Origin: Bryobacteraceae bacterium
GTDB taxonomy: Bacteria; Acidobacteriota; Terriglobia; Bryobacterales; Bryobacteraceae
Assembly: GCA_035295805.1 (NCBI GenBank)
Contig: DATGII010000157.1
Location: 158-64,157 of the forward strand
DNA length: 64,000 nucleotides
Direction: 5' to 3'
Positions 34,422-49,985 of this stretch are shown here, one piece after another. The translations under genes were made by a program, and so were the position numbers. The number at the start of each line of letters is the position of its first letter. Position 1 is the first letter of the stretch. The notes under the pieces are model-generated. The model searched no databases. It saw only the letters and a program-made list of their open reading frames with translations, and was not told where the DNA came from.

Positions 34422-36149
34422 ATGCGTATTGGTTCACTCATTGTGCTCGCCGCTTTGTGCGTCGCTCCTTATCCCATCGCGTTCGCAGCTACGGCCAGCC
34501 CGGTGGCGGATGCGGCCATGCGCGGCGACAAGACGGCGGTCCAGTCGTTGCTCGCCGGGAAAGCGGATGTGAACGCACCCCAGACCGATGGCGCGACCGC
34601 GATTCAGTGGGCGGCGTATCGCAACGATCTCGAACTGGCCGATCTGCTGATTGCAGCCGGGGCGAACGTCAAGCTGGCCAATCATGACGGCGCCACCCCG
34701 CTCTGGCTGGCGGCGGAGAATGGCAGCGCGGCCATGATCGAGAAGCTGATCGAAGCCGGCGCCGACCCCAACGAGCGGCGCGCCAATGCCGGCGATACGC
34801 CTTTGATGATGGCGGCGCGCAACGGGAACGTGGCTGCGCTGAAGGTTCTGCTGGACCACAAAGCCGATCCCAACTTGAAAGAAACCCTGCGCGGCACGAC
34901 CGCTCTGATGTGGGCGGCGGAGCAGGATCACGCCGACGCCGTCAAGGTGCTGCTCGCGCATGGCGCGGATTTCAATGCGGCCACCGAACCGGACACGCGG
35001 AACTCGCGGCTGAACATTGCGCCGACCGTTCAGCAGCGTATCCAGCAGGACGCAAATTTCGGGGCGCGGCGCCCCGGCCGGGCCCGCGCCGGCGCGCGAG
35101 GCGGCGCTGCGGCGGAAACCGCGGCCGCTGATGATTTCGAAGCATTTTTTCGCGGACCGCAAGTCAAGGACGGCGGCGGACTGACGCCGTTGATTTACGC
35201 CGCGCGCGAAGGCTGCCTGGATTGCGCCCGGATGCTGGTGGAAGCCGGCGCCGACGTCAATCAGGTGAGTAAATACGGTTGGACTCCGCTGCTGACCGCT
35301 GCTCAAAACCGGCACTACCGGCTGGCGGCGTACCTCCTCGATAAAGGCGCGAATCCGAATTTGCCCAATAAGGGCGGCTGGACGCCCCTCTACCTCGCCA
35401 CCGACAACCGCAACATCGAGAGCGGCGATTATCCGGTCCGCAGACCGGACATGGATCATCTGGATTTCATCAAGCTGCTCATCGAAAAAGGCGCCAACGT
35501 GAATGCGCGCATTTGCGGCGCCGAATCCACGGCTAAAGAGTGCAAGGGCGACACCACCGAGACGCGCACCAATTTCACCATGCAGTGGCTCTACGAAGAC
35601 GGCGCCACGCCCTTCCTGCGCGCCGCGCAGTCCGGCGACGTCACGCTCATGAAGCTATTGCTCGACCACGGAGCCGATCCCAAGATCGCTACCGCCCACA
35701 ATGACACCGCGCTCGCTGTGGCGGCGGGCATCGGCTGGGTGGAAGGCGTTACCTTTGAATGGTCGCCCGAGCAGAGCCTGGAAGCGGTCAAAATGTGTTT
35801 GGATCTCGGTATTGATCCGAACGTGGCCGACGACCAGGGGCGCACTGCGCTGCACGGCGCGGCCCACAAGGGCCGGACCGACGTGATTCAACTCCTGGTG
35901 GATCACGGAGCCAACCTGGAAGCTCACGACTACGGGAGCCGCGACACCTTCGCCGGCGCCATGAAGGGCATGACCTGGATCCCGCTGGACTGGGCGCGCG
36001 GCCTGGTGCGGGTCGGCGTGCAATCGGCGATTCCGCATCCGGAAGCCGAAAAGCTGCTGGTTAAATTGATGACCGATCGCGGGCTCAAGATCCCCCCGCC
36101 GCCGGCCTCATCGATTTGCCTGACCAAGGGCGTCAACGGCTGCCAATAA
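34422..36149 (+). CDS. ankyrin-repeat protein with signal peptide
   Basis: 575-aa ORF with signal MRIGSLIVLAALCVAPYPIAFA and many ANK repeats (DGATPLWLAAENGSAAMIEKLIEAGADPN etc.). Confidence 0.88.
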   Translation: MRIGSLIVLAALCVAPYPIAFAATASPVADAAMRGDKTAVQSLLAGKADVNAPQTDGATAIQWAAYRNDLELADLLIAAGANVKLANHDGATPLWLAAENGSAAMIEKLIEAGADPNERRANAGDTPLMMAARNGNVAALKVLLDHKADPNLKETLRGTTALMWAAEQDHADAVKVLLAHGADFNAATEPDTRNSRLNIAPTVQQRIQQDANFGARRPGRARAGARGGAAAETAAADDFEAFFRGPQVKDGGGLTPLIYAAREGCLDCARMLVEAGADVNQVSKYGWTPLLTAAQNRHYRLAAYLLDKGANPNLPNKGGWTPLYLATDNRNIESGDYPVRRPDMDHLDFIKLLIEKGANVNARICGAESTAKECKGDTTETRTNFTMQWLYEDGATPFLRAAQSGDVTLMKLLLDHGADPKIATAHNDTALAVAAGIGWVEGVTFEWSPEQSLEAVKMCLDLGIDPNVADDQGRTALHGAAHKGRTDVIQLLVDHGANLEAHDYGSRDTFAGAMKGMTWIPLDWARGLVRVGVQSAIPHPEAEKLLVKLMTDRGLKIPPPPASSICLTKGVNGCQ

Positions 36150-36184
36150 CTTCGGGCAGGCTTCCAGCCTCCCGCGCCCGTCGC

Positions 36185-36976
36185 CTACTTGCCGACCAGG
36201 TGTTCGACGTCGCGATTGTTTTCCTGGCAGATGTACTCGATTAACTCGCCGCGCAGCATCGTGGGATGAGTCGTGAACGTCCACGGCCTCGTGTACGCCT
36301 TTGGATCATCCACCGTGTGTTCGATGTCCATGTGGCCGAGATCGATCCGGTGGAATTTCTCGATTACGTGCAGGGCCTCGGTCGTGGGGAGGCCAGACTC
36401 ATCGATCCACGTTCTGCCGTTGAGCCCGACCGTATCCACTACGAATGTCTCGTCGTCCCAATGACCGATCGATTCGCCAAGCCAGGAAGGATTCGGATCC
36501 GCGCTGTGCGGCCGGCCGTCGGCGAAGATCTGCCGCCATACGTGGGCCCCGCCTTCGTAAACGATCACGGTGAGATTTGGAGTCTGGACAATGCGGAACG
36601 GATAGGGCGTTGTGCTCATGCGCGGTACACCAGGAGGCAGGCAGCGCGCTTCGGGATCGTCCTTGGAGATGTTCGTCTTACGTTCCTTGTACAGGGCTTC
36701 GGCCCACGGTTGAAACGGGACCTGCACGCCGCTGCCCACCATATCCACGTTCTGGCGGATGGCGTTGGGCTCCCAGTTGCCGGATAGGTCCGGTTTACCG
36801 TCGGCCGTGCGCGGCGTCGGACCGGCGGGCGGCCAGTTGGGCCGCGCCCCGCCGCGAGCCCGCGGACCGGGGCCGCCGCCGGCCGCTGGTGCGGGCGGAG
36901 CCTGGGCTTGAACAAACGGAGCAGCCAGCAGCGAAACCGCCGCGGCCATCAAGACGAACGTCAGGGATTTCATCAA
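36185..36976 (-). CDS. exported protein of an uncharacterised family (DGKPD-L-x-G-x-W ... GHWxxxT(L/F)VVD ... LHV(V/I)E(R/K)F), paralogue 1
   Basis: 263-aa ORF with signal MMKSLTFVLMAAAVSLLAAPFVQA. Shares RTADGKPDLSGNWEP, CLPPGVPR, GHWDDETFVVDTVGLN...WID, ALHVIEKFHR with the ORFs at 39663 and 40406. Confidence 0.75.
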   Translation of the reverse strand: MMKSLTFVLMAAAVSLLAAPFVQAQAPPAPAAGGGPGPRARGGARPNWPPAGPTPRTADGKPDLSGNWEPNAIRQNVDMVGSGVQVPFQPWAEALYKERKTNISKDDPEARCLPPGVPRMSTTPYPFRIVQTPNLTVIVYEGGAHVWRQIFADGRPHSADPNPSWLGESIGHWDDETFVVDTVGLNGRTWIDESGLPTTEALHVIEKFHRIDLGHMDIEHTVDDPKAYTRPWTFTTHPTMLRGELIEYICQENNRDVEHLVGK

Positions 36977-37058
36977 TTCCTCCTCGGGGAGGCCGGGTTT
37001 CCGATTGAGTAATGCTTGGCGATTAAAAATACGAAGTGGCGCCGATGATCAGACCCCA

Positions 37059-37070
37059 AATGCATGCATT
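37059..37070. promoter_or_regulatory. candidate operator, 12-bp palindrome AATGCATGCATT
   Basis: Read directly from the sequence. Lies 83-94 nt upstream of the 36976 start, in the divergent intergenic region. Confidence 0.55.
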
Positions 37071-37183
37071 ACCGCGAACCGTTGCTCCAGTATAGGGTTC
37101 GATTCCGCGGCTTGTCAATGTAACCAACGCCCGCTTCCCGACGCCGGAAACCACGCGGAAATGCCGGCGAATCCGGCGCTCGG

Positions 37184-37193
37184 GTGCATGCAC
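37184..37193. promoter_or_regulatory. candidate operator, 10-bp palindrome GTGCATGCAC
   Basis: Read directly. It abuts a possible TTAACA(37197-37202)-18nt-TATAAA(37221-37226) promoter of the GntR gene. Confidence 0.5.
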
Positions 37194-37250
37194 AAATTAA
37201 CAAAAACCCGCCGCTTTTGCTATAAAGTATGGAGCCAGGGAAGGTGAGGC

Positions 37251-38021
37251 GTGGGCGAGAAACCGAACATTCAGAGCATGCCGCCGGGCAAAGAATCCGG
37301 ATCGTCCTCGCAAACCGCGCGCGCCACTCTGGCGCTCCGCGAAATGCTGGTGCAAGGGCGCTTCCGTCCCGGCGAGCGGATTCGCGAAGTGCCCCTGGCC
37401 GCCGAATTGAAGGTCTCCCGCATCCCGCTGCACCTGGCCTTGGAACGGCTGGCGCACGAGGGCTTTCTGCAAATCCGGCCCACCCGCGGCTTCGTGGTCC
37501 AGGGATTCTCCACCGACGACATCTTCGACGCGATTGAATTGCGCGGCCTGCTCGAGGGCGAGGCGGCCCGCCTCGCCACCGAACGATTGCGCGACCCCCG
37601 GGATCTGGAACCGCTGCAGCAAGCCAGCCGCGAAATTTTGACGCTGATCCGGCGGCGCAAACTCACCATCGACGGCTTCAACCTCTATATCGAATTGAAC
37701 GCCAGCTTTCATAGCGCTCTGCTCGATCTCTCGCGCAGCCGCATGCTGCGCCGCGCCGTCGAACAGGCCTGCTCGCTGCCGTTTGCGTCGCCCAGCGCTT
37801 TCCTGAAACGGCAGTATGTAACGCCCGAGTTGCAGGAATTGTTCCTGATTTCCGCCGACCAGCATCGCGCGATTGTCGAGGCGATCGCCAATCACGAGAG
37901 CATGCGCGCCGAGGCGCTCACCCGCGAGCACGCCCGCGTCGCCCGCCGCAACCTGGAAAACGCCCTGCAAAACCGCGAACAACTGCAAGGCATCGCGGGC
38001 GCCCGGCTCATCCACTTGTAG
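37251..38021 (+). CDS. GntR-family transcriptional regulator (FadR/FCD-type C-terminal domain)
   Basis: 256-aa ORF (GTG start, AGGTGAGG upstream). Winged-helix region LREMLVQGRFRPGERIREVPLAAELKVSRIPLHLALERLAHEGFLQIRPTRGFVV. Confidence 0.88.
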   Translation: MGEKPNIQSMPPGKESGSSSQTARATLALREMLVQGRFRPGERIREVPLAAELKVSRIPLHLALERLAHEGFLQIRPTRGFVVQGFSTDDIFDAIELRGLLEGEAARLATERLRDPRDLEPLQQASREILTLIRRRKLTIDGFNLYIELNASFHSALLDLSRSRMLRRAVEQACSLPFASPSAFLKRQYVTPELQELFLISADQHRAIVEAIANHESMRAEALTREHARVARRNLENALQNREQLQGIAGARLIHL

Positions 38022-38028
38022 CCCCGCG

Positions 38029-38040
38029 GATGCATGCATC
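38029..38040. promoter_or_regulatory. candidate operator, 12-bp palindrome GATGCATGCATC
   Basis: Read directly. Begins 8 nt after the GntR stop. Confidence 0.5.
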
Positions 38041-38104
38041 TGCGTGCGCGCTCTATCGCGCCGTCGCGCCGCCCACTGCCGCAAAAGACCACATTTGACG
38101 CGGG

Positions 38105-38134
38105 TTGACAGCACTCGCGGCCTCCGAATATAAT
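38105..38134 (+). promoter_or_regulatory. sigma70-type promoter of the dioxygenase operon
   Basis: TTGACA (38105-38110), an 18-nt spacer, then TATAAT (38129-38134). Lies 134 nt upstream of ATG 38268. Confidence 0.65.
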
Positions 38135-38151
38135 TCGATCCTGCGCCGGAG

Positions 38152-38161
38152 TTGCATGCAA
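38152..38161. promoter_or_regulatory. candidate operator, 10-bp palindrome TTGCATGCAA, just downstream of the -10
   Basis: Read directly. Starts 18 nt after the TATAAT, a repressor-type position. Confidence 0.55.
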
Positions 38162-38267
38162 TCTTACGTTGGGTCGCCTCCCGCCAGGGAAGGTCCGGCC
38201 CTCCCCTTCCTCCGGCCGATGCGGCAGACCCCGTTTGCGCTAAAGTTGAATTTTTAGGAGATCTCTC

Positions 38268-39239
38268 ATGGATTACCCACTCACCGGATATCACCACATC
38301 ACCGCTTGCGCCGGAGGCGCCCAGGACGATATCAATTTCTTTACGCAAGCGCTTGGCCTGCGCATGGCCAAGCAGACCGTGCTCATGGATGGCAAGATTC
38401 CGGTCTATCACTTGTATTACTCGAACGCGAAGATCGAACCTGGATCCGTCATGACCACGTTTCCTTACAGCCGCCTCCAGGGGCGGCGCGGCTCCGGCCA
38501 GGTCTATGCCACCGCGTTTACCGTTGCCAAAGGCACTCTCCCGTTCTGGAAGGATCACCTGAAGCGCCATAACATCGAACAGGAACCCGCCGCTGAACGC
38601 TTCGGACAGTCGTTTATCCGGTTCAATCATCCCTCGGGACTGCAATTCGAGGTCATCGAGGATAAAGAGGACCAGCGGGAAGGCTGGACCACGCCGCAGA
38701 TCGGGCTCGGCGAAGCGGTCCGCGGCTTCCATGGCTCGGTACTATCGGTCCGTGAGATCCCCGAAACCGAGCGATTCTTCATTGACGCCCTCGGCTTCCG
38801 CAAAACGGGGGTCGACGGCGCCTATCATCGCTTTGAGACAGGCACCGGCGGCGCCAACAAAACCATTACCCTTCTGCATCAGCCCGACCGGCCCGCCGGA
38901 AGCTGGACCTTCGGCGCCGGCACCCATCATCACATCGCGCTCTGGGGCGCCGATGACGACGCGCTCACGCGCCAGAAGGCCATCTACGAAGAACTCGGCT
39001 ACACCGACGCTTCCGAAATCAAAGACCGCTTCTATTTCCACTCGATGTACTGCCGCTGCCCGGGCGGAATCCTGGTCGAGAGCTGCTGCAATGTGCCGGG
39101 CGGCTTCGAGAAGGATGAACCGAAGGAAAAGCTCGGTACGACGCTGCACTTGCCGCCATGGTGGGCCGACCGCAAACAGGAAATGATGAAGGTGCTGGAA
39201 CCGATTCGCGTTCCCGAAACCGCGACCCACCGCAATTGA
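38268..39239 (+). CDS. ring-cleaving dioxygenase, two-domain VOC (glyoxalase/extradiol) family, MhqO-like
   Basis: 323-aa ORF preceded by TAGGAG. Starts MDYPLTGYHHITACAGGAQDDINFFTQALGLRMAKQTV. The second VOC repeat has GFHGSVLSV...HHIALW. Confidence 0.82.
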   Translation: MDYPLTGYHHITACAGGAQDDINFFTQALGLRMAKQTVLMDGKIPVYHLYYSNAKIEPGSVMTTFPYSRLQGRRGSGQVYATAFTVAKGTLPFWKDHLKRHNIEQEPAAERFGQSFIRFNHPSGLQFEVIEDKEDQREGWTTPQIGLGEAVRGFHGSVLSVREIPETERFFIDALGFRKTGVDGAYHRFETGTGGANKTITLLHQPDRPAGSWTFGAGTHHHIALWGADDDALTRQKAIYEELGYTDASEIKDRFYFHSMYCRCPGGILVESCCNVPGGFEKDEPKEKLGTTLHLPPWWADRKQEMMKVLEPIRVPETATHRN

Positions 39240-39252
39240 TTCGCGCATCGTC

Positions 39253-39666
39253 ATGAAGAACCGCTTGATGATTTTGATTTGCGGCGGCGCGCTGGCTCTG
39301 ATTCCCGGCACAGTTTCGGCGCACCACTCCTTCGCTGCCGAGTACGACGCCAATAAGCCCGTCACGTTGAAAGGCAGGGTGACCAAGGTGGATTGGGTCA
39401 ACCCCCACTCTTGGGTTCACGTCGACGTTACCGACGCCAACGGCAAGGTGACCAACTGGAGTTGCGAGACGGCGCCTCCCAACATCCTCTATCGCCAGGG
39501 CTGGAGACCGAACAGCCTCAAAGAAGGCGACGAGGTCACAATCGAAGGTTTCGCGGCAAAGGATGCCACCGCCACCATGACCGCCAACTCGGTCACCTTG
39601 GCGAATGGCCGCAGGATGTTCGTGGGCTCCAACAAAGACGGCGCGCCCTCCGAGTCGAAGAAATGA
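39253..39666 (+). CDS. DUF6152-like small exported protein
   Basis: 137-aa ORF: MKNRLMILICGGALALIPGTVSA/HHSFAAEYDANKPVTLKGRVTKVDWVNPHSWVHVDV... Confidence 0.75.
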   Translation: MKNRLMILICGGALALIPGTVSAHHSFAAEYDANKPVTLKGRVTKVDWVNPHSWVHVDVTDANGKVTNWSCETAPPNILYRQGWRPNSLKEGDEVTIEGFAAKDATATMTANSVTLANGRRMFVGSNKDGAPSESKK

Positions 39667-40409
39667 GTGCGGCTCGCGCGCTCATCGCCTGCGCCGCGCT
39701 GATCGCTTCGCTATCGGGCCAAACGAGAGCCTATCGCGCTCCCCGTACACCCGACGGGAAGCCCGATTTACAGGGCATCTGGGAGGCGCGCTCCACCGCC
39801 GGCGGCAATCTCGAAGCGCACAGCGCCGCGCTCGGGATACGCGCCGGAGAGAGCGTGATCGTCGACCCTGCGGATGGCAGGATCCCGTATCAACCCGCGG
39901 CGCGCGAAAAGCAGAAAGAGAATTTTCTGAACCGGGCGGCAGCCGACCCCATCGCCAAGTGTTATCTGCCGGGCGTGCCGCGCGTCACCTACATGCCCTA
40001 CCCGTTCCAGATTTTTCAGACGCCGGAATTTGTCGCCCTCACCTACGAGTATGTCCATGCGTCGCGCACCATCCACATGAACAAATCCGAACACCTGGAC
40101 GGCATCGAATTCTGGATGGGCGATTCCCGCGGGCATTGGGAAGGTGAGACCTTGGTGGTGGACGTGGCCGATAACAACGGCGACACTTGGCTGGACTCCT
40201 CGGGCAACTTTCACAGCTCGGCTCTGCACGTCGTCGAACGCTACACCCGGACTGGGCCGGATACTTTACAATACGAAGCGGCCCTTGAGGATCCCAAGGT
40301 GCTCACCCGCCCGTTCACCATCAGCATTCCGTTGTACCGACACACCGGCAAAAACGCGCAATTGTACGAATACGAATGTCACGTCTATCAGGAGGAAAGC
40401 AGGAAATGA
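39663..40409 (+). CDS. exported protein of the same uncharacterised family, paralogue 2
   Basis: The start is set at MSAARALIACAALIASLSG (ATGA overlap with the DUF6152 stop); the track ORF starts at 39393. Contains RTPDGKPDLQGIWEA, CYLPGVPR, GHWEGETLVVDVADNN...WLD, ALHVVERYTR. Confidence 0.75.
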   Translation: MSAARALIACAALIASLSGQTRAYRAPRTPDGKPDLQGIWEARSTAGGNLEAHSAALGIRAGESVIVDPADGRIPYQPAAREKQKENFLNRAAADPIAKCYLPGVPRVTYMPYPFQIFQTPEFVALTYEYVHASRTIHMNKSEHLDGIEFWMGDSRGHWEGETLVVDVADNNGDTWLDSSGNFHSSALHVVERYTRTGPDTLQYEAALEDPKVLTRPFTISIPLYRHTGKNAQLYEYECHVYQEESRK

Positions 40410-41215
40410 TGCGGACGGCGGCGCTCGCGCTGGCCGTGCTGCTGCCGGTAGCGCTCCTGGCGCAAGGCCGCGGCCCGGGGCGCGCCCCCGGAAAGGCCGG
40501 CCCGTTCACGCGTCTGCCCGATGGCAAGCCAAACATGCAGGGCTACTGGGAGACGCTCAATTTCTTCTCGGCTTTCGACCTGGAAGGCCACGACAAAGCC
40601 GAGTTCGGCATTCCCGCCGGCAAGGGCGTTGTCGTCGATCCTGCCGATGGAAAAATCCCCTACCAGCCCTGGGCGCTGGCAAAGCGGAAGGACGTTCTCG
40701 AACACCACTTGTTCGATGACCCGCAGGCGCACTGTTGGCTTTCGGGCGTGCCGCGCCAGATGTACACCCCGTTCGGGTTCCAGATCCTCCAGCCGCCCGG
40801 CAATGTCGTCCTGCTCTACGAGGCGTTTCATTCCTACCGCATCATTCCTCTGAACGGCGCGCCGCACGCTTCCGATGCCATCCGCATGTTCGAAGGCGAT
40901 TCGCGCGGCCACTGGGAAGGCGACACGCTCGTCGTCGACGTCACCAACCAGAACGAGAAGACCTGGTTCGACATGTCGGGCAACTTTCATAGCGACGCGC
41001 TTCACGTAGTCGAGCGGTTTACGATGGCCGACGCGAACACCATCCGTTACCAGGCCACCCTCGACGATCCCAAAGTCTTTGCGCGGCCCTGGAAAATCGC
41101 CTTCGACCTGGGCCGCAACACCCAGCCCGACTACCAGCAGATGGAGTACGCCTGTGTCGAAGGCGAAAAAGACCTGCAGCATTACACCGAAAGCGAGGGG
41201 GCCAGGAAAAAGTAA
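40406..41215 (+). CDS. exported protein of the same uncharacterised family, paralogue 3
   Basis: The start is set at MMRTAALALAVLLPVALLAQG (ATGA overlap with the previous stop). Contains RLPDGKPNMQGYWET, CWLSGVPR, GHWEGDTLVVDVTNQN...WFD, ALHVVERFTM. Confidence 0.75.
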   Translation: MMRTAALALAVLLPVALLAQGRGPGRAPGKAGPFTRLPDGKPNMQGYWETLNFFSAFDLEGHDKAEFGIPAGKGVVVDPADGKIPYQPWALAKRKDVLEHHLFDDPQAHCWLSGVPRQMYTPFGFQILQPPGNVVLLYEAFHSYRIIPLNGAPHASDAIRMFEGDSRGHWEGDTLVVDVTNQNEKTWFDMSGNFHSDALHVVERFTMADANTIRYQATLDDPKVFARPWKIAFDLGRNTQPDYQQMEYACVEGEKDLQHYTESEGARKK

Positions 41216-41231
41216 GCGGCCCGCCGGACAC

Positions 41232-42392
41232 ATGAAAACCAGCACGGAACGCATCCTCACCACTCACGTCGGCAGTCTGCCGCGTCCTCAGGAAGTCGCG
41301 GATTTGTTGTTCATGCAGGACCGCGGCGACCCATACGACCCCGCCCGCTTCGATGCCGTCATGCGGCGCGGCGTCGCCGAAGCCATTCGCCGGCAGCAGC
41401 AAGCCGGCATCGATATCGTCAGCGACGGCGAAACCAGCAAGATCAGCTACGCCACCTACATTCGCCATCGCCTCACCGGCTTTGAAGGCGATTCGCCGCG
41501 GCCCACGCCGCAGGATATCGACGAGCTGCCCGACTACCGCGACAAGCTCGTCAAAGAGGGCGCATCGGCGAAATATTTGCGGCCGGCCTGCAAAGGACCC
41601 ATCCAGGTGAAGAACCGCGAGCCGCTCGAACAGGATATCGCCCGCATGAAGGACGCCCTGGCCCAGGCGCAGGTGACCGAAGGCTTCATGAACGCCGTGT
41701 CGCCCGGCACCATCGCGGTCTTCCAGCCTAACGAATATTACCCCTCTCATGCCGCATACATGGAAGCGCTCGCCGGGGCCATGCGCGACGAATACGAGAC
41801 CATCGTGCAATCGGGCCTGCTGCTGCAGGTAGACTGTCCCGATCTGGCCATGGGACGCCACAGCCGCTTCCGCAATCTCAGCGACGAAGAATTCCTGCGC
41901 GCCGCCGAAATCCAGGTCGAGGCGCTCAATCACGCCTTGGCCCGCGTGCCCGCCGATCGCGTGCGCCTCCATATCTGTTGGGGCAATTACGAAGGCCCGC
42001 ATACGCACGATATTCCCCTCGAAAAGGTGCTGCCGCTGCTGTTCAAAGCCAAGCCGATGGCTCTGCTGATCGAAGGCGCCAACCCCCGCCATGAGCATGA
42101 GTGGGAGATTTGGAAGACGCACAAGCTTCCCGCTGATAAAATTCTCGTGCCCGGCGTGCTCGACTCCAGCTGCAATTTTGTCGAACACCCGCAGCTGGTG
42201 GCGCAGCGTCTGGTGCGCTATGCCGAGGGTGTCGGCCGCGAGCGTGTGATCGCCGGCACCGATTGCGGCTTCGGCACCTTCGCCGGCTTCGGTCCGGTCC
42301 ATCCGTCCATCTGCTGGCTCAAAATGCGGTCGCTGGCCGAAGGCGCGGCGCTGGCGTCGAAGAAGCTGTGGGGCGCGCGGTCTTCGGCATGA
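41232..42392 (+). CDS. cobalamin-independent methionine synthase (MetE C-terminal domain)-like protein 1
   Basis: The start is set at MKTSTERILTTHVGSLPRPQEV. Also has IDIVSDGE, HICWGN and TDCGF (candidate Zn ligands). 386 aa. Confidence 0.82.
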   Translation: MKTSTERILTTHVGSLPRPQEVADLLFMQDRGDPYDPARFDAVMRRGVAEAIRRQQQAGIDIVSDGETSKISYATYIRHRLTGFEGDSPRPTPQDIDELPDYRDKLVKEGASAKYLRPACKGPIQVKNREPLEQDIARMKDALAQAQVTEGFMNAVSPGTIAVFQPNEYYPSHAAYMEALAGAMRDEYETIVQSGLLLQVDCPDLAMGRHSRFRNLSDEEFLRAAEIQVEALNHALARVPADRVRLHICWGNYEGPHTHDIPLEKVLPLLFKAKPMALLIEGANPRHEHEWEIWKTHKLPADKILVPGVLDSSCNFVEHPQLVAQRLVRYAEGVGRERVIAGTDCGFGTFAGFGPVHPSICWLKMRSLAEGAALASKKLWGARSSA

Positions 42393-43540
42393 AGCGAAGC
42401 GAGCACCGGATTCTCACCACCCACGTCGGCAGCCTCATCCGGCCCGGGGAACTGCGCGATCTCTCCGCGGCCGCGGAAAAGGATCCCGCCCAGGCGGCGC
42501 ACTATGAGTCGGCGCTGCGCCAGGCCGTCGCCGAGGTCGTCCAACACCAGGCGCGCGTCGGTATCGATATCGTCAGTGACGGCGAGTACGGCAAAGCCAG
42601 CTGGTCCAACTACATCCTGAAACGCATCAGCGGATTTGAGATTCGCCCCGAGCAGAAGCGCACGCTCCCCTGGCTTGGCCGCGACCGCGAGCGATTCCGC
42701 GACGCCATCGCGCAGGATATGCCCCGCCTGCTGACCGGCGTCCCCACCGAAGCCTGTACCGGTCCTGTCTCCTACCGCGACCCCGCGCCCATCCGGCGTG
42801 CCATCGAAAATTTCCAGGCCGCTCTGCGGCAGGTCTCGGTGGAAGAGGCATTTCTCACCGCCGTCGCTCCCGGCAGCACCGCCTACGACGGCGTCAACGA
42901 GTATTACTCGAGCGAAAAAGAGTACGTCTACGCAATTGCCGACGCGCTGCGCGAGGAATACCGCGCCATCCACCAATCCGGCGTGCTGCTGCAGGTGGAT
43001 GATGCCGTGCTCGCCAACATGTACGACGAGCTCGTGCAGGCCAGCCCCCAGCGCTATCGGGAATGGGCGAACCTGCGGGTCGAAGCCCTGAACCACGCCT
43101 TGACCGGCATCCCCGACGACCGCATTCGCTACCATGTCTGCTTCGGCAGTTGGCATGTGCCGCATGTCGCCGACGCTCCGCTCGATCAGATTGTCGATCT
43201 GATTCTCAAAGTCCGCGCCGGCGCCTACTCCATCGAAGCCGCCAACGTGCGCCACGAGCACGAGTGGCGGGTCTGGGAAAATGCCCGCCTGCCCAAAGCA
43301 AAGCTGCTCATCCCCGGTGTCATTACTCACCACACCGCCACCGTGGAGCATCCGCAAGCCGTGGCCGATCGCATTGTCCGCTTCGCCCGCCTCGTGGGCC
43401 GCGAGAATGTTATCGCGGGCTCCGATTGCGGTTTTGCGCAAGCCGACATGATCCAGCGCGTTCATCCTACCGTCATGTGGGCCAAGTTCGAGGCGCTCGT
43501 CGAAGGCGCGCGAATCGCCTCGAAAACGCTCTGGTCGTGA
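42389..43540 (+). CDS. cobalamin-independent methionine synthase (MetE C-terminal domain)-like protein 2
   Basis: The start is set at MKRSEHRILTTHVGSLIRPGEL (ATGA overlap with the previous stop). Also has IDIVSDGE, HVCFGSW, SDCGF. 383 aa. Confidence 0.82.
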   Translation: MKRSEHRILTTHVGSLIRPGELRDLSAAAEKDPAQAAHYESALRQAVAEVVQHQARVGIDIVSDGEYGKASWSNYILKRISGFEIRPEQKRTLPWLGRDRERFRDAIAQDMPRLLTGVPTEACTGPVSYRDPAPIRRAIENFQAALRQVSVEEAFLTAVAPGSTAYDGVNEYYSSEKEYVYAIADALREEYRAIHQSGVLLQVDDAVLANMYDELVQASPQRYREWANLRVEALNHALTGIPDDRIRYHVCFGSWHVPHVADAPLDQIVDLILKVRAGAYSIEAANVRHEHEWRVWENARLPKAKLLIPGVITHHTATVEHPQAVADRIVRFARLVGRENVIAGSDCGFAQADMIQRVHPTVMWAKFEALVEGARIASKTLWS

Positions 43541-43593
43541 AAGAGTTGATGCCCCCGCTGATACCTGCTATCGATTCGGTTGATACTGCGTTC

Positions 43594-43601
43594 TGCATGC
43601 A
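43594..43601. promoter_or_regulatory. candidate operator core TGCATGCA upstream of the TonB-dependent receptor promoter
   Basis: Read directly (ttcTGCATGCAatc). Confidence 0.45.
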
Positions 43602-43657
43602 ATCCACTGATGCCGGCGCATGGTTGTGAATTGTCGAAGGTGCGACCAATATTACCG

Positions 43658-43687
43658 TTGACATAGATTTCGCCCACGTCATATAAT
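43658..43687 (+). promoter_or_regulatory. sigma70-type promoter of the TonB-dependent receptor gene
   Basis: TTGACA (43658-43663), an 18-nt spacer, then TATAAT (43682-43687). Lies 112 nt upstream of ATG 43799. Confidence 0.65.
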
Positions 43688-43703
43688 CCAGCAAAACTGG
43701 TGG

Positions 43704-43715
43704 AATGCACGCATT
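43704..43715. promoter_or_regulatory. one-mismatch copy of the operator (AATGCACGCATT) downstream of the -10
   Basis: Read directly. Starts 17 nt after the TATAAT, the same geometry as at 38152. Confidence 0.4.
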
Positions 43716-43798
43716 TTGACTCGGGGTCCCTTCCGGCATTTGGGCCGTGTGTACCTGCGCGCCCGGAGTCTCTCAGTAGCCCTAGAGGAGGACCATTC

Positions 43799-46700
43799 AT
43801 GAAAACTTTTGCTTTGCGCTGCGCGACGGCAGCCATTGCCTTATCTTTGGCGAGCATCGCTTTCGGCCAGATCACCGCCTCGGTCGGCGGCACCGTATCT
43901 GACCCCTCCGGCGCTCTGGTACCGAAAGTCAATGTCAGCGCCCGTAATATCAATACCGGCATCGTGTCCAACACGGTAACCAATGAAACGGGAGCCTATC
44001 AGTTTCCGAGCCTGCAGCCCGGCTCTTACACGATCTCGGCCACAGCCGCCGGTTTCCAGACGGCCACTTACAATGACGTGCAGCTCGGGCAGAACCAGCA
44101 AGTGCGCCTGAACTTCAGCATGCAACTGGCCACCGGCGCGCAGTCTGTCGAAGTCGAGGTCCAGGCCGACACCGCCATCGCCACCACATCCTCCTCGGTC
44201 GGCGGTGTGATCGCTGAGAAAGACGTGCTCTCGCAGCCGCTCGCGAGCCGCAACGTGCTCGATCTGGTCGCCCTCACGCCCGGCGTAATTTCGGTGCCCG
44301 GCGTGTTCGTCGGCAGCACGCTGAATTTTGCCGGCGTGCAGCAAAATCAGGTGAACACCACGCGCGATGGTTTGATCACCAACGACGGCCGCTACGCCAA
44401 CGGCGCCTACTCCGGCATTTTCACGAGTCCCGACATGGTCGAAGAAGTTCGCGTCAGCACCAACCAGATCGATCCTTCGCTCGGCCGCGGTGCCGCGCAG
44501 GTGCAAATGCGGACCCGCTCCGGCAGCAACGAATTTCACGGCGCGGCTTTCTGGACCAATAACAACTCCGTCTTCAACGCGGCCACCTACTTTCAGAACC
44601 TCCAGCACCAGCCGGTGGATTATGCCAATCGTAACCAGTTCGGCGGCCGCGTCGGAGGTCCGATTAAAAAGAATAAGGCCTTCTTCTTCGTCTTAACGGA
44701 TGATCAGCGTTACATGACGAAGGTGAATGACGTCGCCACGGTTCTCACCGCGCCGGCCCGCCAGGGCATCTTTCGTTATCTGACCGCCGGTTCGCCGGGC
44801 GGCGCCGCGCGAACCAATGGCAACGCCTTTTCGAGCACCCCCTCGGTTGATCTGAACGGAAATATCCTCACCTCGGCCGGCGGCCAGCCGTTATACCTGA
44901 ATTCGGTCAACCTGCTTGCTGCCGGAGGTCCCAATTTCAGCTCGATCGATCCGCTCTGGTTCGGGCCTCAGTACACGAACAAGTACATGCCGCTGCCCAA
45001 CAACTACACCGTCGGCGACGGCCTGAACACGGCTGGTTTCCAATGGCAGCAGCCGGAGAACGGAGTGGACGGTTCCACGGGCCAAAGCCCCAGCACCAAT
45101 CGCAACAACATCACGCTCCGCTTCGACTATCAGATCAACGCCGCTCAGAGTGTCAATTTCGTGATGAGCAAGGAACGGGATTGGGGCGTCAATACCCAGA
45201 CCGGTATCCCCGATTACCCGGCCGGTTATTTCGGCGATGTGCGGCGGACCCCGTCCTTTTATAGCGCGGCCTGGACGTGGACTATCAGGCCGACCTTGTT
45301 GAATGAATTCCGTTTCGGCCATAAAGTCGATACCTGGCAAGGCACTTCCGCCATGGATCTGGGGTGCTGCTGGAATGGCGCGGCGGAGAACAGCGGACTG
45401 GCGGCGACCGCCCAGGCGGCCCGCGCCTCCTATCCGCAGTTGAATGGCTCGTTCCTCTACACAGCACCCGGTTCGCTCGGCGCCATCGGCGGGAGCCTGG
45501 GGCTGTACGCCGGTATGAATGTCGCATCCCCCCGTCAGACGATCAGCCCCTTCTGGCAGTTTGGCGACTCGCTCAGCTGGATCCACGGATCCCATTCGCT
45601 TCAGTTCGGATTCGAAATCGACCGGACGTCCTCGCAATCGGCTAATAGCGGCGGCACCCAGACTACGCGGCCCACCGTGAACCTCGGCATACCCGCCGGT
45701 GGAGTGGCGCCGCCGATCACCACGGCTACCTTCCCCGGCATCGGCGCGCTCAACCTCACCACGGCTCAGAATTTGCTGGCTAACCTCGCCGGCGAGGTGG
45801 CCAACGTGCAGGAACAATATTGGGTCAACAGCCCGACCGCGACCAACTGGAATTCCTACCTGAACGATTTTCTGTTCTACCGAACCAATCATCAGAATGC
45901 CTGGTCCGGGTACGTCAAGGATACGTGGAAGGTCAACCCCAATCTGACCGTCAATGCCGGCCTGCGCTACGACTTTTTCGGCGCGCCTTATCAGGATCAG
46001 GGCTTGGCCGGTCGGCCTCTCGGCGGCCAGGCCGGATTGTTCGGAATCTCCGGAACCAGCTTCGCGGCAATGTGGAACCCGTACGCCAATGGCGGCGCGT
46101 TGACCACGGCTCAGTTTGTCGGCCCGAATTCGCCCAACCCCGGCCTTGGTGTATACAACAATTACTGGAAGGCCCTCGGTCCTTCGATTGGAGTCGCCTA
46201 CCAGTTGCCGTGGTTCAAGCGCGCCACGGTCATCCGTGCGGGTTACGGCATCAATTACATCGGCAACGTGGACTTCCTCACGGTGAATACGGGCATCGGT
46301 AACTTCCCGGGCCAGACGCTGAATACTCAATTCAATCCGTCGACCTTCGTGAACCTGTCGAGCCTCCTCTCTTCGGGCAATGTGCCGGTGCCGACGGGCA
46401 CCACGCAGCCCTTCACCCCAGTGCCGCTTACAGGCCCGACCAGCCGCACGGCCACCATCTACGGTTACGCGGACAATCTGCGGACGCCGTACATTCAAAG
46501 CTACAACTTCTCGATCCAACGGGAATTGACTTCAACTCTGACGGTCGACTTCAATTTCATCGGCAACAAAGGTTCCGAACTCTACACGAATCAGCAGCTG
46601 AACGAGACCAACATCTTTGAAAACGGGATCCTGAATGCCTTCAACACCACCCGGGCCGGAGGCAATGCCCCGCTGTTTGATACGTTGCTGAACGGAATCA

Positions 46701-47836
46701 CGATTCCCGGCGTCGGCACCGTGAACGGCACGTCGTTAACCGGCTCGCAGGCGCTCCGGCAATACTCGGTCACCAATACGATGATCGCGAATGGCTCCGT
46801 TGGCGCCCTGGCCAACTTCTTTAATACGACGTCAACCGGAACGGGAGCCAACGGCGGACTGCTTTCCCACGCCGGGCTGCCGCAGAACTTCATTGTCGTG
46901 AACCCCCAATTCGCCCAGGTGTTCATGATCGATAACAACGGAAATTCCACCTACAACGCATTCCAGGCCCACATCATGAAACGCCTGACTCACGGTGTGA
47001 CCGGCCAGTTCTCGTATACGTTTTCCAAAACGCTCGGCGACACGCCGGCCGGCGGCGGCACCTCCGGCGGCATCCGCGACTGGCGGAATATGAGTCTGAG
47101 CAAGAGTCTGTTGCCGATTGATCGTCCCCAGCTGTTCCAGTGGAACATCACGTGGGATCTGCCCATCGGCAGCAAACGGGCGCTGTTGGGTAATGCTCCC
47201 AAGTGGATGAACACGGTTGTGGGCGGCTGGCAGGTCGCTTCCGCATTCCAATGGCAATCCGGCGTACCGCTCACGTTCTTCCCGGGAAGCGGGACTTCCC
47301 TCAACAACGTCGATACGATCGGCTACTTCGCCAGCAACACGGCGGATCTGGTCGGTCAACTGCCCTCCAACCTTTCGACCGTTGTGAAAGGAAATGGCTT
47401 CGTCCAATACTTCCCCGGCCTGTCGGCAGTGAATGCGCCGGCCCCAAACTTCGGCGGCGATCCCAATCTGCCGGGACGGTTCACCAATTTGCAGGTAGTC
47501 AACGCATCGGGTCAGCCGGTGCTGGCTAACCCGAATCCTGGAACAACCGGGAATACCCCGTACTACATGCCGGGAGTGCGCAGCCCCGGATTGATGGGCT
47601 TTAATGCGTCCGCCAGTAAGCTCTTCCGGCTCACCGAGTCGAAGACCATCACGTTGCGGGCCGACGCCATCAACATTTTGAATACTCCTCAATTCGGCTA
47701 TTACCTGAGCGCTCCGCCGATTGGCCAGCCGCCTCTCGTCGCGATTCAGACTAATATCGATTCGCCGTCATTCGGCCGCATCACGTCGGCAACCGGCAAC
47801 CGCATGATCACGTTCTACGCTCGTTTCGATTTCTAG
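43799..47836 (+). CDS. TonB-dependent receptor with carboxypeptidase-regulatory-like N-terminal domain
   Basis: The start is set at MKTFALRCATAAIALSLASIAFGQ (GAGGAGG upstream); the track ORF starts at 43700. N-terminal domain ITASVGGTVSDPSGALVPKVNVSARNINTG...TGAYQFPSLQPGSYTISATAAGF. The long beta-barrel ends ...YARFDF (terminal Phe). Confidence 0.88.
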   Translation: MKTFALRCATAAIALSLASIAFGQITASVGGTVSDPSGALVPKVNVSARNINTGIVSNTVTNETGAYQFPSLQPGSYTISATAAGFQTATYNDVQLGQNQQVRLNFSMQLATGAQSVEVEVQADTAIATTSSSVGGVIAEKDVLSQPLASRNVLDLVALTPGVISVPGVFVGSTLNFAGVQQNQVNTTRDGLITNDGRYANGAYSGIFTSPDMVEEVRVSTNQIDPSLGRGAAQVQMRTRSGSNEFHGAAFWTNNNSVFNAATYFQNLQHQPVDYANRNQFGGRVGGPIKKNKAFFFVLTDDQRYMTKVNDVATVLTAPARQGIFRYLTAGSPGGAARTNGNAFSSTPSVDLNGNILTSAGGQPLYLNSVNLLAAGGPNFSSIDPLWFGPQYTNKYMPLPNNYTVGDGLNTAGFQWQQPENGVDGSTGQSPSTNRNNITLRFDYQINAAQSVNFVMSKERDWGVNTQTGIPDYPAGYFGDVRRTPSFYSAAWTWTIRPTLLNEFRFGHKVDTWQGTSAMDLGCCWNGAAENSGLAATAQAARASYPQLNGSFLYTAPGSLGAIGGSLGLYAGMNVASPRQTISPFWQFGDSLSWIHGSHSLQFGFEIDRTSSQSANSGGTQTTRPTVNLGIPAGGVAPPITTATFPGIGALNLTTAQNLLANLAGEVANVQEQYWVNSPTATNWNSYLNDFLFYRTNHQNAWSGYVKDTWKVNPNLTVNAGLRYDFFGAPYQDQGLAGRPLGGQAGLFGISGTSFAAMWNPYANGGALTTAQFVGPNSPNPGLGVYNNYWKALGPSIGVAYQLPWFKRATVIRAGYGINYIGNVDFLTVNTGIGNFPGQTLNTQFNPSTFVNLSSLLSSGNVPVPTGTTQPFTPVPLTGPTSRTATIYGYADNLRTPYIQSYNFSIQRELTSTLTVDFNFIGNKGSELYTNQQLNETNIFENGILNAFNTTRAGGNAPLFDTLLNGITIPGVGTVNGTSLTGSQALRQYSVTNTMIANGSVGALANFFNTTSTGTGANGGLLSHAGLPQNFIVVNPQFAQVFMIDNNGNSTYNAFQAHIMKRLTHGVTGQFSYTFSKTLGDTPAGGGTSGGIRDWRNMSLSKSLLPIDRPQLFQWNITWDLPIGSKRALLGNAPKWMNTVVGGWQVASAFQWQSGVPLTFFPGSGTSLNNVDTIGYFASNTADLVGQLPSNLSTVVKGNGFVQYFPGLSAVNAPAPNFGGDPNLPGRFTNLQVVNASGQPVLANPNPGTTGNTPYYMPGVRSPGLMGFNASASKLFRLTESKTITLRADAINILNTPQFGYYLSAPPIGQPPLVAIQTNIDSPSFGRITSATGNRMITFYARFDF

Positions 47837-47870
47837 AAAGGCGGCAACGCGATTTCCAGCCGGTTGCGCG

Positions 47871-48866
47871 TCACGCCGCCGGCTGGTGGTTGCCGAAGAC
47901 CTTTGCTTCTGAGGAATCAGCGGCGCGGGTGCCGGACGCAGCCGACGCCGCAAGCCGCTGGCGCATTCCGCGCTGCTCGCAGAACAAATCGGCGATCACG
48001 CTTCGCAGCCAGCGCACCGCCGGATCGTGCGTGTATCGCTCGTGCCAGTGCTGCATGATCACGTAAGAAGGCACCGCAAACGGCAAGCGCAGCACTTTAA
48101 TGGTTCCCGGCCCCGCCAGGTGTTGCGCCAATTGTCCCGGCAGGACTGCCAGGTAATCGGTGGATGCGAGAATCGAGGAGATGCCCAAAAAGCTCGGCAC
48201 CGACAACCCAACGTGGCGGCGGATGCCCTTGGCTTCGAGAATTCGCTCCACGATGCCATGTCCGGTGCCGGAGGTGGCGACCGCGAGGTGAGTCTCGCCT
48301 TGAAATTGTTCGAGGCTCAGGGCGGCTCCGACGCGCGGGTGATCCCGCCGCGCAGCGCAGACGAATTTTTCCTTGAACAGGCTTTGCTGGCAATAACCGG
48401 CGCCCATCGGCGGAATGAACCCGACCGCAAGATCCACTGCTCCCGATTCCAGCAGGCGGGGCGTGGTCTCCGAGATGCGCCGCAAGTCGATCCGCACCGC
48501 CGGGGCATCCTCTTTCAACCGCGCCATGAGTTTCGGAATCAGCGTGACTTGCGCGATGTCGGTGGAACACAGCCGGAAGACGCGGTCCGAGGTTCGCGGG
48601 TTGAACACGACGTGATGCCCCAGCGCGGTTTGTAATAACTCTTCGGCTTGCTTGAGGAGATCGATAAGCTCGGAGGCATGCGGCGTCGGCTCCATGCCGC
48701 TGGAGGTACGGACAAACAGTGGATCGTTGAAATGCTTGCGGAGCTTCGCCAGATTCATGCTGACTGCGGACTGGCTTAGCGACAAATTCTCCGCGGTTTG
48801 CGACACGCTGCGCGTGTGGTGCAGTTCGCTGACGACGGCCAGAAGCTTCAGGTCTATGTTTTTCAC
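47871..48866 (-). CDS. LysR-family transcriptional regulator
   Basis: The start is set at GTG 48866 (VKNIDLKLLAVVSELHHTRSVSQTAENLSLSQSAVSMNLAKLRKHF). The track ATG at 48926 lies inside a TGCATGCA site. Confidence 0.85.
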   Translation of the reverse strand: MKNIDLKLLAVVSELHHTRSVSQTAENLSLSQSAVSMNLAKLRKHFNDPLFVRTSSGMEPTPHASELIDLLKQAEELLQTALGHHVVFNPRTSDRVFRLCSTDIAQVTLIPKLMARLKEDAPAVRIDLRRISETTPRLLESGAVDLAVGFIPPMGAGYCQQSLFKEKFVCAARRDHPRVGAALSLEQFQGETHLAVATSGTGHGIVERILEAKGIRRHVGLSVPSFLGISSILASTDYLAVLPGQLAQHLAGPGTIKVLRLPFAVPSYVIMQHWHERYTHDPAVRWLRSVIADLFCEQRGMRQRLAASAASGTRAADSSEAKVFGNHQPAA

Positions 48867-48921
48867 GCGCGCCCGCAACCCCCCGCAGCAGGAAGCTGTT
48901 AGAGCAAGCATATCACAAAAT

Positions 48922-48929
48922 TGCATGCA
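48922..48929. promoter_or_regulatory. candidate operator core TGCATGCA upstream of the LysR gene
   Basis: Read directly (aatTGCATGCAtta). Confidence 0.45.
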
Positions 48930-48963
48930 TTATAGGCGGCTTCGGGGCACCCGTGACGAAGAA

Positions 48964-48991
48964 CCGGGAGAAATGCATGCATTTCTCCCGG
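48964..48991. promoter_or_regulatory. 28-bp perfect palindrome centred on TGCATGCA (operator and/or terminator hairpin of the upstream hydrolase gene)
   Basis: ccgggagaaatgcatgcatttctcccgg is its own reverse complement. It lies 31 nt downstream of the stop at 49022 and 98 nt upstream of the LysR start. Confidence 0.6.
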
Positions 48992-49021
48992 TAGGAGATG
49001 GGTCGGCGGGCGGAAACTCGG

Positions 49022-49885
49022 CTAGGCCAGCGCCTTGCCGTACAGCGCGAGCAGACGGCTCCAGGCCCTCTCTGCCTCGGGCTCGTTATAAACCCCGGAA
49101 TCCGGAGGGCACCAGCCGTGCGCGCCCTTGTACACTTCGATTTCGGCGGGCAGGTTCGCCTTGGCGAAGGTCTCCCTCAGAATGTCCTTCTCGTCCGGCT
49201 TCTGCGCGTCGTCGTTGGCGGCAATGCAAATTAAAAACTGCGCCTTGCTCTTGGCCGCCTGCAGGTGCGGGCTATTGGGCATGTCCGTCGCAAGCCCGTT
49301 GCCGCCGTGGAAAGAGGCGACGGCTCCGACGCGGTCCGGCACGGCGGCGGCGGTGCGAAACGCCATCGGGCCGCCCATGCAATACCCCTGCGTGCCGATC
49401 TTGCGATTCTTGGCAACCGAGGGTTGCTGATCGAGCCACGCGATGAACGCCTTCGCATCCGTCATGTGCGTCTTTTCATTGAGGCTTTGGGCTAGCGGCA
49501 TCAATTGCGGGATCGGGGTGGCGGCGCCTTTTTCGGCGGTCGGCGCTTTCTTAGTGCGATAAAACGGATTCACCACGAGCACCGAATAGCCCGATTCGGC
49601 GAGCCGCTTGCCCATCTGGCGCTGCGCCGGACGCAACCCGAAGATGTCGGGCCACAGCAGAACGCCGGGCGCCGTGCCGCTCGATGGATGCACGAAATAG
49701 CAGTCGGCGGTGCCATCCGGGGTTTTCACTTCCACGTCCGATTCGGTAACGGATACGGCATTGGCAACGGCCGGCAGCATCATAGCCACCCCGGCGCCCA
49801 GTATTTTCCCGAATTGCTTTCGCGTTACCAGACCGAGGCGTTCAAATTCTTTCAGATCCTCGTCAAAATGATCTTGATCGCACAT
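49022..49885 (-). CDS. dienelactone hydrolase family protein, probably exported
   Basis: 287-aa ORF. TRKQFGKILGAGVAMMLPAVANA resembles a signal or Tat-like leader. GVLLWPDIFGL, GTQGYCMGG (nucleophile elbow) and the C-terminal GAHGW are typical of DLH. Confidence 0.82.
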   Translation of the reverse strand: MCDQDHFDEDLKEFERLGLVTRKQFGKILGAGVAMMLPAVANAVSVTESDVEVKTPDGTADCYFVHPSSGTAPGVLLWPDIFGLRPAQRQMGKRLAESGYSVLVVNPFYRTKKAPTAEKGAATPIPQLMPLAQSLNEKTHMTDAKAFIAWLDQQPSVAKNRKIGTQGYCMGGPMAFRTAAAVPDRVGAVASFHGGNGLATDMPNSPHLQAAKSKAQFLICIAANDDAQKPDEKDILRETFAKANLPAEIEVYKGAHGWCPPDSGVYNEPEAERAWSRLLALYGKALA

Positions 49886-49985
49886 AATCGCTCCTTATCG
49901 TTGCCTGATTCCTCTAGAGTGGCGCGGCGGACCGCGCGTATACCGGGCTATTTTATATCACCCGGCATGCCGACAGGGCGGCCGA

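Follow-up and report, generated by a model that had tools for sequence, protein, structure and literature searches.

Repeated palindromes in an acidobacterial gene cluster as predicted operators of a VanR/Atu1419-type GntR regulator

The gene cluster and its repeated palindrome

We analysed a stretch of 64,000 nucleotides from a Bryobacteraceae bacterium (Acidobacteriota; contig DATGII010000157.1, positions 158 to 64,157), here called the window. It has a G+C content of 60.7%, lower than the roughly 63% assumed in an earlier note made on this DNA from its letters, and open reading frames (ORFs) put its coding share at about 90%. Our subject is the octamer TGCATGCA, a palindrome that recurs in the intergenic DNA of one gene cluster, and the GntR-family regulator encoded among the sites. 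Gene calls were those stored for an identical metagenome contig (LysR start at 48866, TonB-receptor start at 43799); the identical locus was seen on metagenome contigs of at most 38 kb, and among species-representative genomes the best match is 82% identical. The genes concerned are the following.

36185-36973, minus strand: gene for a 262-aa secreted protein, a paralog of two operon proteins without assigned function
37251-38021, plus strand: GntR/FCD regulator of the VanR group, the proposed binder of the sites
38268-43540, plus strand: six-gene operon (PcpA-like hydroquinone 1,2-dioxygenase, DUF6152, two paralogous proteins, two MetE-like proteins)
43799-47836, plus strand: TonB-dependent receptor with a CarboxypepD_reg domain
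47871-48866, minus strand: LysR-family regulator gene, a regulon member in the reading favoured below
49022-49885, minus strand: dienelactone-hydrolase-like gene

The octamer was found seven times in the window, at 37061, 37185, 38031, 38153, 43594, 48922 and 48974, which reproduces every exact copy listed in the earlier note. Only 1.55 copies (standard deviation, 1.3) were expected, and a count of seven was reached in 0 of 100 dinucleotide-preserving shuffles of the window. All seven copies are confined to 12 kb (37061-48981); the remaining 51.8 kb of the window and its other ~30 intergenic regions contain none. One-mismatch variants, taken as a class, were not enriched in the window (25 including the exact copies, versus 31 expected), and we therefore restricted the work to exact cores with A/T flanks. 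Such flanks accompany just one of the 18 one-mismatch variants, TGCACGCA at 43706, inside AATGCACGCATT, a near copy that had also been reported and proved to be real. By the database gene calls, all eight sites (seven exact and the near copy) are intergenic, in agreement with the earlier impression that no exact copy lies in a coding sequence.

A logo built from 131 distinct sites gave a full motif of 12 bp, WWTGCATGCAWW. The two flanking positions on each side (four in total) are 93% A/T, and conservation ends there. That only A/T flanks are kept, with nothing conserved further out, is what a protein-binding site would show and speaks against a repeat element.

Promoters, conservation and spacing of the sites

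The sites lie ahead of five transcription units, namely the 262-aa secreted protein gene, GntR, the dioxygenase operon, the TonB receptor and LysR; the earlier note had counted four. The predicted operators and promoters are listed here in their order along the window.

37059-37070: operator AATGCATGCATT, core at 37061, 20 nt past the -10 of the minus-strand promoter that serves the 262-aa secreted protein gene
37089-37118, minus strand: sigma-70-type promoter TTGACA-18-TATACT, 11/12 matches (promoter scan), driving gene 36185-36973
37183-37194: operator GGTGCATGCACA, ending 4 nt upstream of the putative GntR -35, 124 bp from site 37061
37197-37202 and 37221-37226, plus strand: putative GntR promoter, TTAACA and TATAAA with an 18-nt spacer, read by eye and not called by the promoter scan
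38029-38040: distal operator GATGCATGCATC, 122 bp upstream of the proximal dioxygenase-operon operator
38105-38134, plus strand: dioxygenase-operon promoter TTGACA-18-TATAAT, 12/12 matches (promoter scan)
38151-38162: proximal operator GTTGCATGCAAT, core beginning 18 nt after the -10, at ~+12 to +19
43592-43603: distal operator TCTGCATGCAAT ahead of the TonB-dependent receptor
43658-43687, plus strand: TonB-dependent receptor promoter TTGACA-18-TATAAT, 12/12 matches (promoter scan)
43704-43715: proximal degenerate operator AATGCACGCATT, core beginning 18 nt after the -10
48907-48915, minus strand: putative extended -10 of the LysR promoter, TGaTATGCT; TGnTATnCT is kept in many orthologous upstream regions
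48920-48931: operator ATTGCATGCATT, centred near -25 of the LysR promoter, its end 6 nt upstream of the extended -10
48963-48992: 30-bp perfect palindrome centred on AATGCATGCATT, distal operator, 52 bp from site 48922

At all three near-consensus promoters the core lies 18-20 nt from the -10, at roughly +12 to +19. A proximal site shortly after a consensus -10 had already been recognized at two promoters; we measured 18 nt for those at 38105 and 43658, and the third promoter is alike, with 20 nt. The paired sites in the window are 124, 122, 112 and 52 bp apart. Three of these distances had been given correctly; the third, ahead of the TonB receptor, is 112 bp core to core, and the earlier figure of 110 bp was wrong because the start of a 12-mer had been mixed with that of an 8-mer. 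Compared with the Escherichia coli sigma-70 consensus, two promoters match at 12/12 and one at 11/12 positions, all with 18-nt spacers, and the same architecture recurs in related loci. Matches of this quality are unusually strong for natural promoters and are informative on promoter usage in Acidobacteria.

The positions of the sites are conserved well beyond the window. In L001 and L002, two metagenome-assembled genomes (MAGs) of Bryobacteraceae/Solibacteraceae in which GntR is ~80% identical, the sites are kept at the corresponding promoters, the distance from promoter to operator is unchanged, and the degenerate TGCACGCA site ahead of the TonB receptor is base-for-base identical in L002. 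A metagenome scan with the LysR protein as the query yielded 80 loci (L021-L100) with 69 distinct LysR upstream regions, and the site is present in 59 of the 69, mostly as a pair. The earlier note had named a lack of conservation in orthologous loci as evidence that would speak against a regulatory role; the opposite was observed in L001, in L002 and in most of the LysR upstream regions. The arrangement TTGACA-N17/18-TATAAT-N16-20-TGCATGCA recurs in the window, in L001, in L002 and in many LysR upstream regions. Many orthologous LysR upstream regions also share a conserved TGCATGCA-N5/6-TGnTATnCT, which we read as an operator abutting an extended -10.

Two classes of LysR promoter can be seen. 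In the first, a conserved extended -10 (TGTGATATGCT) follows the operator after 5-6 nt; in the second, typical where GntR is divergent, the operator lies ~17 nt downstream of TTGACT-N17/18-TATACT. GntR and LysR are often divergent in the metagenome loci, with the site pair in between. Together with the dioxygenase, DUF6152, the paralog family, the MetE-like genes, the TonB receptors and an ankyrin-repeat protein, they form a cluster that is conserved in shuffled order.

Two of the copies allow a non-regulatory explanation to be weighed, in which the octamers would reflect chance, restriction-site palindromes of the SphI or NsiI type, or small hairpins and terminators. Each is part of a longer palindrome just behind a stop codon. 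Site 38031 belongs to an imperfect palindrome of 20 bp immediately past the GntR stop codon, and the palindrome at 48963-48992, which had been described as 28 bp long and is in fact 30 bp, lies 30 nt past the stop of the dienelactone-hydrolase-like gene (49022). For the latter, RNA folding predicted a stable 13-bp hairpin (region -37.7 kcal/mol, z -4.5), followed by a weak tail, UUCUUCGUC, without a clear U tract. This strong hairpin so close to the hydrolase stop suggests a possible role at a transcript end, and 48963-48992 may thus be both an operator and the transcript-end hairpin of the dienelactone-hydrolase gene. However, a terminator scan of 48800-49100 called no terminator-like site, an Rfam search of 36000-50000 gave no match, and the remaining copies are too short for hairpins. 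Moreover, the shuffles never reached seven copies, and the fixed distance to promoter hexamers is kept in dozens of loci, so that a non-regulatory origin of the sites is hardly credible.

We then consider the distances between sites, which are not spread evenly. A set of 57 non-redundant adjacent-site pairs clusters near 75, 86, 96, 110, 122, 133, 144, 159, 168, 178 and 188 bp, and the periodogram of these pairs peaks at 11.6 bp (R 0.54), a signal matched by 0 of 5000 jittered data sets. With one value per sequence family (n=26, no shared 9-mers), the peak was at 11.7 bp (R 0.63, p 0.002), with a phase of about half a turn. No spacing signal was found at the 10.5-bp helical repeat (R 0.12-0.27). 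In vivo, lac loops show an apparent repeat of more than 11 bp per turn and a roughly half-integral optimum (PMC3001091). The arrangement resembles lac O1/O3 in having a proximal operator at the promoter, an auxiliary operator ~50-190 bp away, and quantised spacing with a repeat above 11 bp. It differs in that the protein family is unrelated and that looping is here deduced from spacing statistics and from the homolog Atu1419, introduced below. These data are suggestive of DNA loops bridging the paired sites.

The regulator and its relatives in other phyla

The GntR gene (37251-38021) encodes a protein with an N-terminal winged helix-turn-helix domain (PF00392, E 3.6e-14) and a C-terminal FCD domain (PF07729, E 3.6e-14). 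A protein search with GntR returned only acidobacterial relatives, at an identity of at least 72%, and close relatives carry the JGI label "vanillate catabolism transcriptional regulator." Among proteins of known structure, it matched Atu1419 (6z74) with an E value of 8.4e-43 over residues 19-245, at about 42% identity, and the next PDB match had an E value of 2.6e-12. Atu1419 of Agrobacterium fabrum (PDB 6Z74 and others) is a tetrameric FCD-GntR repressor of the VanR group that has been crystallised on ATGTATACAT. The sites it binds are paired, one perfect and one degenerate at a distance of 109 bp in one case and two at 190 bp in another, and its loops were observed by electron microscopy (PMC7797058). 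By our own arithmetic, distances of 109 and 190 bp correspond to 0.40 and 0.38 turn at 11.6 bp, a phase similar to that of the acidobacterial pairs.

Alignments of the two proteins indicated that the Zn ligands Asn137, His141, His192 and His214 are kept in the window GntR, as are Ser44, Arg45, Glu34 and Arg86. The two regulators thus have the same domains, the same Zn ligands and the same guanine-reading arginine. The likeness extends to the DNA, since the window consensus ATGCATGCAT equals the Atu1419 operator at 8 of 10 positions and differs only at the symmetric positions 4 and 7. Both systems have a 10-bp palindromic operator of the form ATG-N4-CAT, a site arrangement pointing to autoregulation, a perfect site with a second, sometimes degenerate, site ~110-190 bp away, and sites that overlap or follow the core promoter. 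They differ at operator positions 4-7 (CATG in the window, TATA in Atu1419) and in the genes under control, which in the window would be the PcpA-like dioxygenase operon, the TonB receptor, LysR and the secreted paralogs and in the case of Atu1419 are a LigM-type demethylase and MetF. As judged from sequence, the window GntR passes as a VanR/Atu1419-type regulator on its domains, homology, Zn site, Arg45, short palindromic operator (TGYATRCA core) and predicted autoregulation. In domain and structure-homology searches, the window units under its predicted control showed neither vanAB nor a GcvT-type demethylase. Since neither vanAB nor ligM/metF would be controlled, the protein does not qualify functionally as a vanillate regulator in the strict sense.

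A further known system, compared by description, is VanR of Caulobacter crescentus, a GntR-type repressor of an aromatic O-demethylation operon that acts through two perfect 12-bp palindromic vanO operators, one beside the -35 and one over -10/+1; its operator, ATTGGATCCAAT, and its effector, vanillate, set it apart from the system described here (PMC5377333).

The earlier note had proposed that the sites are operators of a single regulator, with GntR and LysR as candidates, that unites 36.2-49.0 kb in one regulon and may loop the DNA between paired sites. The operator reading is supported by the conserved promoter positions, by the LysR upstream regions and by the repressor geometry, and of the two candidates we favour GntR as the predicted and very probable binder, with LysR probably a regulon member and second-tier regulator. 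The competing assignment holds that the LysR-family protein (47871-48866) binds TGCATGCA, autoregulates and controls the cluster. It draws on the frequency of the site, usually paired, in LysR upstream regions and on the many loci in which LysR comes first, in front of the dioxygenase genes. Within Acidobacteria, GntR and LysR genes co-occur in one cluster, and the site pair keeps its place most steadily ahead of LysR. The choice between the two regulators therefore cannot be made from acidobacterial data alone. LysR-type regulators generally bind an interrupted dyad, T-N11-A, with the recognition site next to the activation site. The present motif is, however, an uninterrupted 12-bp palindrome conserved no further than two flanking positions, and pair distances of 52-260 bp are unlike LysR-type footprints.

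Homologs outside Acidobacteria argue in the same direction. In Kordiimonas and a related marine alphaproteobacterial MAG, GntR homologs 43-44% identical to the window protein have a palindrome in the promoter of their own gene, TGCATGCA in the former and TGCGTGCA instead in the MAG. In loci of this type, a GcvT-fold LigM-like demethylase and MTHFR are in addition preceded by three copies of TGCATGCA; this demethylase/MTHFR locus is the functional equivalent of Agrobacterium atu1420/atu1418. Homologs from other phyla were also reached through a plasmid collection. Those of Azospirillum, Rhizobium, Roseomonas and Burkholderia are 41-48% identical and are found in vanA-vanR-vanB or beside MTHFR and GcvT. 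One or two copies of TGTATACA, which is the core of the Atu1419 operator, flank each of them, against an expectation of 0.02-0.09 per locus. These sites lie beside VanR homologs on proteobacterial plasmids or chromids (L101, 4653 and 4817; L102, 5707; L103, 4887; L104, 5807 and 5892; L105, 4906), and some are paired, 85 or 164 bp apart. We found no LysR homolog within 6-10 kb of the alpha- and betaproteobacterial GntR homologs, although the same or a one-position-variant palindrome flanks them. The motif was not found with GntRs at only 26-32% identity.

Direct binding data exist for a GntR-family protein on the same core. Ms0535 of Mycobacterium smegmatis, a VanR-like GntR, protects CCTTGCATGCATTCTTGCATGCAAGG in a footprint (PMC4609117). 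Compared by operator and not by protein sequence, the likeness lies in two TTGCATGCA(A/T) palindromes with the core seen in the window and in a site in the promoter of its own gene; the difference is that its two palindromes are just 4 nt apart. Taken with the proteobacterial loci, this footprint makes LysR a quite improbable binder. Still less probable is a different, unlinked transcription factor that recognizes the palindrome and is associated with GntR by accident, since the motif tracks GntR homologs over three phyla, shifting with them between TGTATACA and TGCATGCA, and is missing from the other ~30 intergenic regions of the window. TG[C/T]AT[G/A]CA appears to be the operator code of the VanR/Atu1419 family across these three phyla.

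Which residue would set the choice between C/G and T/A at operator positions 4 and 7 was also considered. The substitutions of Thr46 by Ile and of Arg49 by His were rejected as the cause because they are limited to Acidobacteria and absent from Kordiimonas, which also uses TGCATGCA. Residue 50, directly after Arg49, is Leu in both TGCATGCA lineages and V, A, T or E in six TGTATACA lineages. As the sole correlating residue it is a candidate specificity determinant, a correlation that involves two independent TGCATGCA lineages.

Proposed mode of regulation and its meaning

From the motif, its positions and conservation, and the homology of the encoded protein, we infer with a probability of about 0.8 that the WWTGCATGCAWW palindromes are operators of the VanR/Atu1419-type GntR-FCD regulator encoded at 37251-38021, which would control the five units. 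One dimer would bind each palindrome, and the structure of Atu1419 on DNA suggests that the recognition-helix arginine (Arg45 in Atu1419) reads the G of each TGCA half-site. At the three strong promoters the proximal operator is placed at ~+12 to +19, and at the LysR promoter between the -35 region and the extended -10. From such positions, a bound protein would block RNA polymerase at all four promoters. By analogy with Atu1419, the two dimers of a tetramer would probably hold both the proximal operator and a second one, which lies 52-124 bp away at most promoters, looping the DNA and tightening repression. An effector bound in the Zn-containing FCD domain would release the DNA and so induce the secreted paralog gene, GntR itself, the PcpA-like dioxygenase operon, the TonB receptor and LysR. 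Candidates for this effector are N5,N10-methylene-tetrahydrofolate and a methoxylated aromatic compound; the former is attractive because it is the effector of Atu1419 and because the cluster has two MetE-like genes.

Several observations weigh against this reading, in addition to the constant site pair ahead of LysR. Two DNA-contact residues of Atu1419, Thr46 and Arg49, are Ile and His in the window GntR. The dioxygenase promoter of L002 has no second site, and some orthologous promoters are likewise single-site. Shared ancestry may still inflate the spacing periodicity. Activation would also fit the position of site 37185, upstream of the putative GntR -35, and for Ms0535 the reported role is that of activating an MFS permease operon (PMC4609117).

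The last two points bear on the possibility that GntR binds the sites and activates some or all of the promoters. Ms0535 binds TTGCATGCA repeats and is the reported activator of its own operon, and site 37185, just upstream of the putative GntR -35, would be centred at ~-45. Yet 4 of the 5 promoters have a site at +12 to +19 or inside the core promoter, where a bound protein would obstruct RNA polymerase. Moreover, an activator should not be needed at the three promoters that depart from the sigma-70 consensus at no more than one of 12 positions, and the closest characterised homolog, Atu1419, is a repressor. We thus regard activation as improbable in general, though less clearly so at the GntR promoter itself, and retain repression by GntR.

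A stronger version of the GntR model can be formulated, which we consider speculative and rather unlikely to hold in full. A tetrameric VanR-type repressor would shut a whole acidobacterial catabolic regulon (PcpA-like dioxygenase, DUF6152, three secreted paralogs, two MetE-like proteins, TonB receptor and LysR) through obligatory loops; operator phasing, at ~11.6 bp per turn and half-integral, would be under selection, and the repressor might sense a folate one-carbon intermediate. If folate one-carbon sensing were true, the MetE-like proteins would represent a new kind of aryl-methyl-ether demethylation system.

The genes of the cluster point to an uncharacterised catabolic pathway. The product of 38268-39239 (plus strand) matches 2,6-dichloro-p-hydroquinone 1,2-dioxygenase of the PcpA type (4huz, E 5e-73) and MhqO (3oaj, E 2e-52). 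Since the dioxygenase is specifically PcpA-like, the cluster probably cleaves a substituted hydroquinone rather than catechol. The three paralogs at 36185-36973 (minus strand), 39663-40409 (plus strand) and 40406-41215 (plus strand) are 33-50% identical to one another and gave no match in Pfam, NCBIfam or PDB searches; their family recurs, often in multiple copies, in dozens of acidobacterial contigs beside DUF6152 and a PcpA-like dioxygenase. The tandem MetE-like (Meth_synt_2) paralogs at 41232-42392 and 42389-43540 (plus strand) are ~43-45% identical, their stop and start codons overlap, and they could provide a methyl-transfer step of such a pathway. Elsewhere, the type of regulator under which this pair would stand is linked to the demethylation of aryl O-methyl groups and the recycling of folate C1 units. 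Next to the cluster lies a gene for an ankyrin-repeat protein of 575 aa, 34422-36149 (plus strand), which has no upstream TGCATGCA; homologs 82-86% identical accompany the cluster at differing positions in L001, L002, L028 and L029.

Overall, we regard this as a well-supported but fairly ordinary regulatory system, the TGCATGCA core of which has a precedent in Ms0535. Our literature search found no paper on the acidobacterial regulon or on the motif in Acidobacteria. To our knowledge, almost no transcription factors have been characterised in Acidobacteria, and for this abundant soil phylum the sites provide a concrete operator sequence, a promoter architecture and a predicted five-unit regulon. 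Added to this are an apparent family-wide operator code, a candidate specificity residue, a spacing periodicity and a regulatory handle on a widespread uncharacterised cluster. The consensus promoters with an operator at +16 are possible parts for inducible promoters. Finally, a regulator type tied to aromatic O-demethylation narrows the search for the substrate of this conserved cluster.

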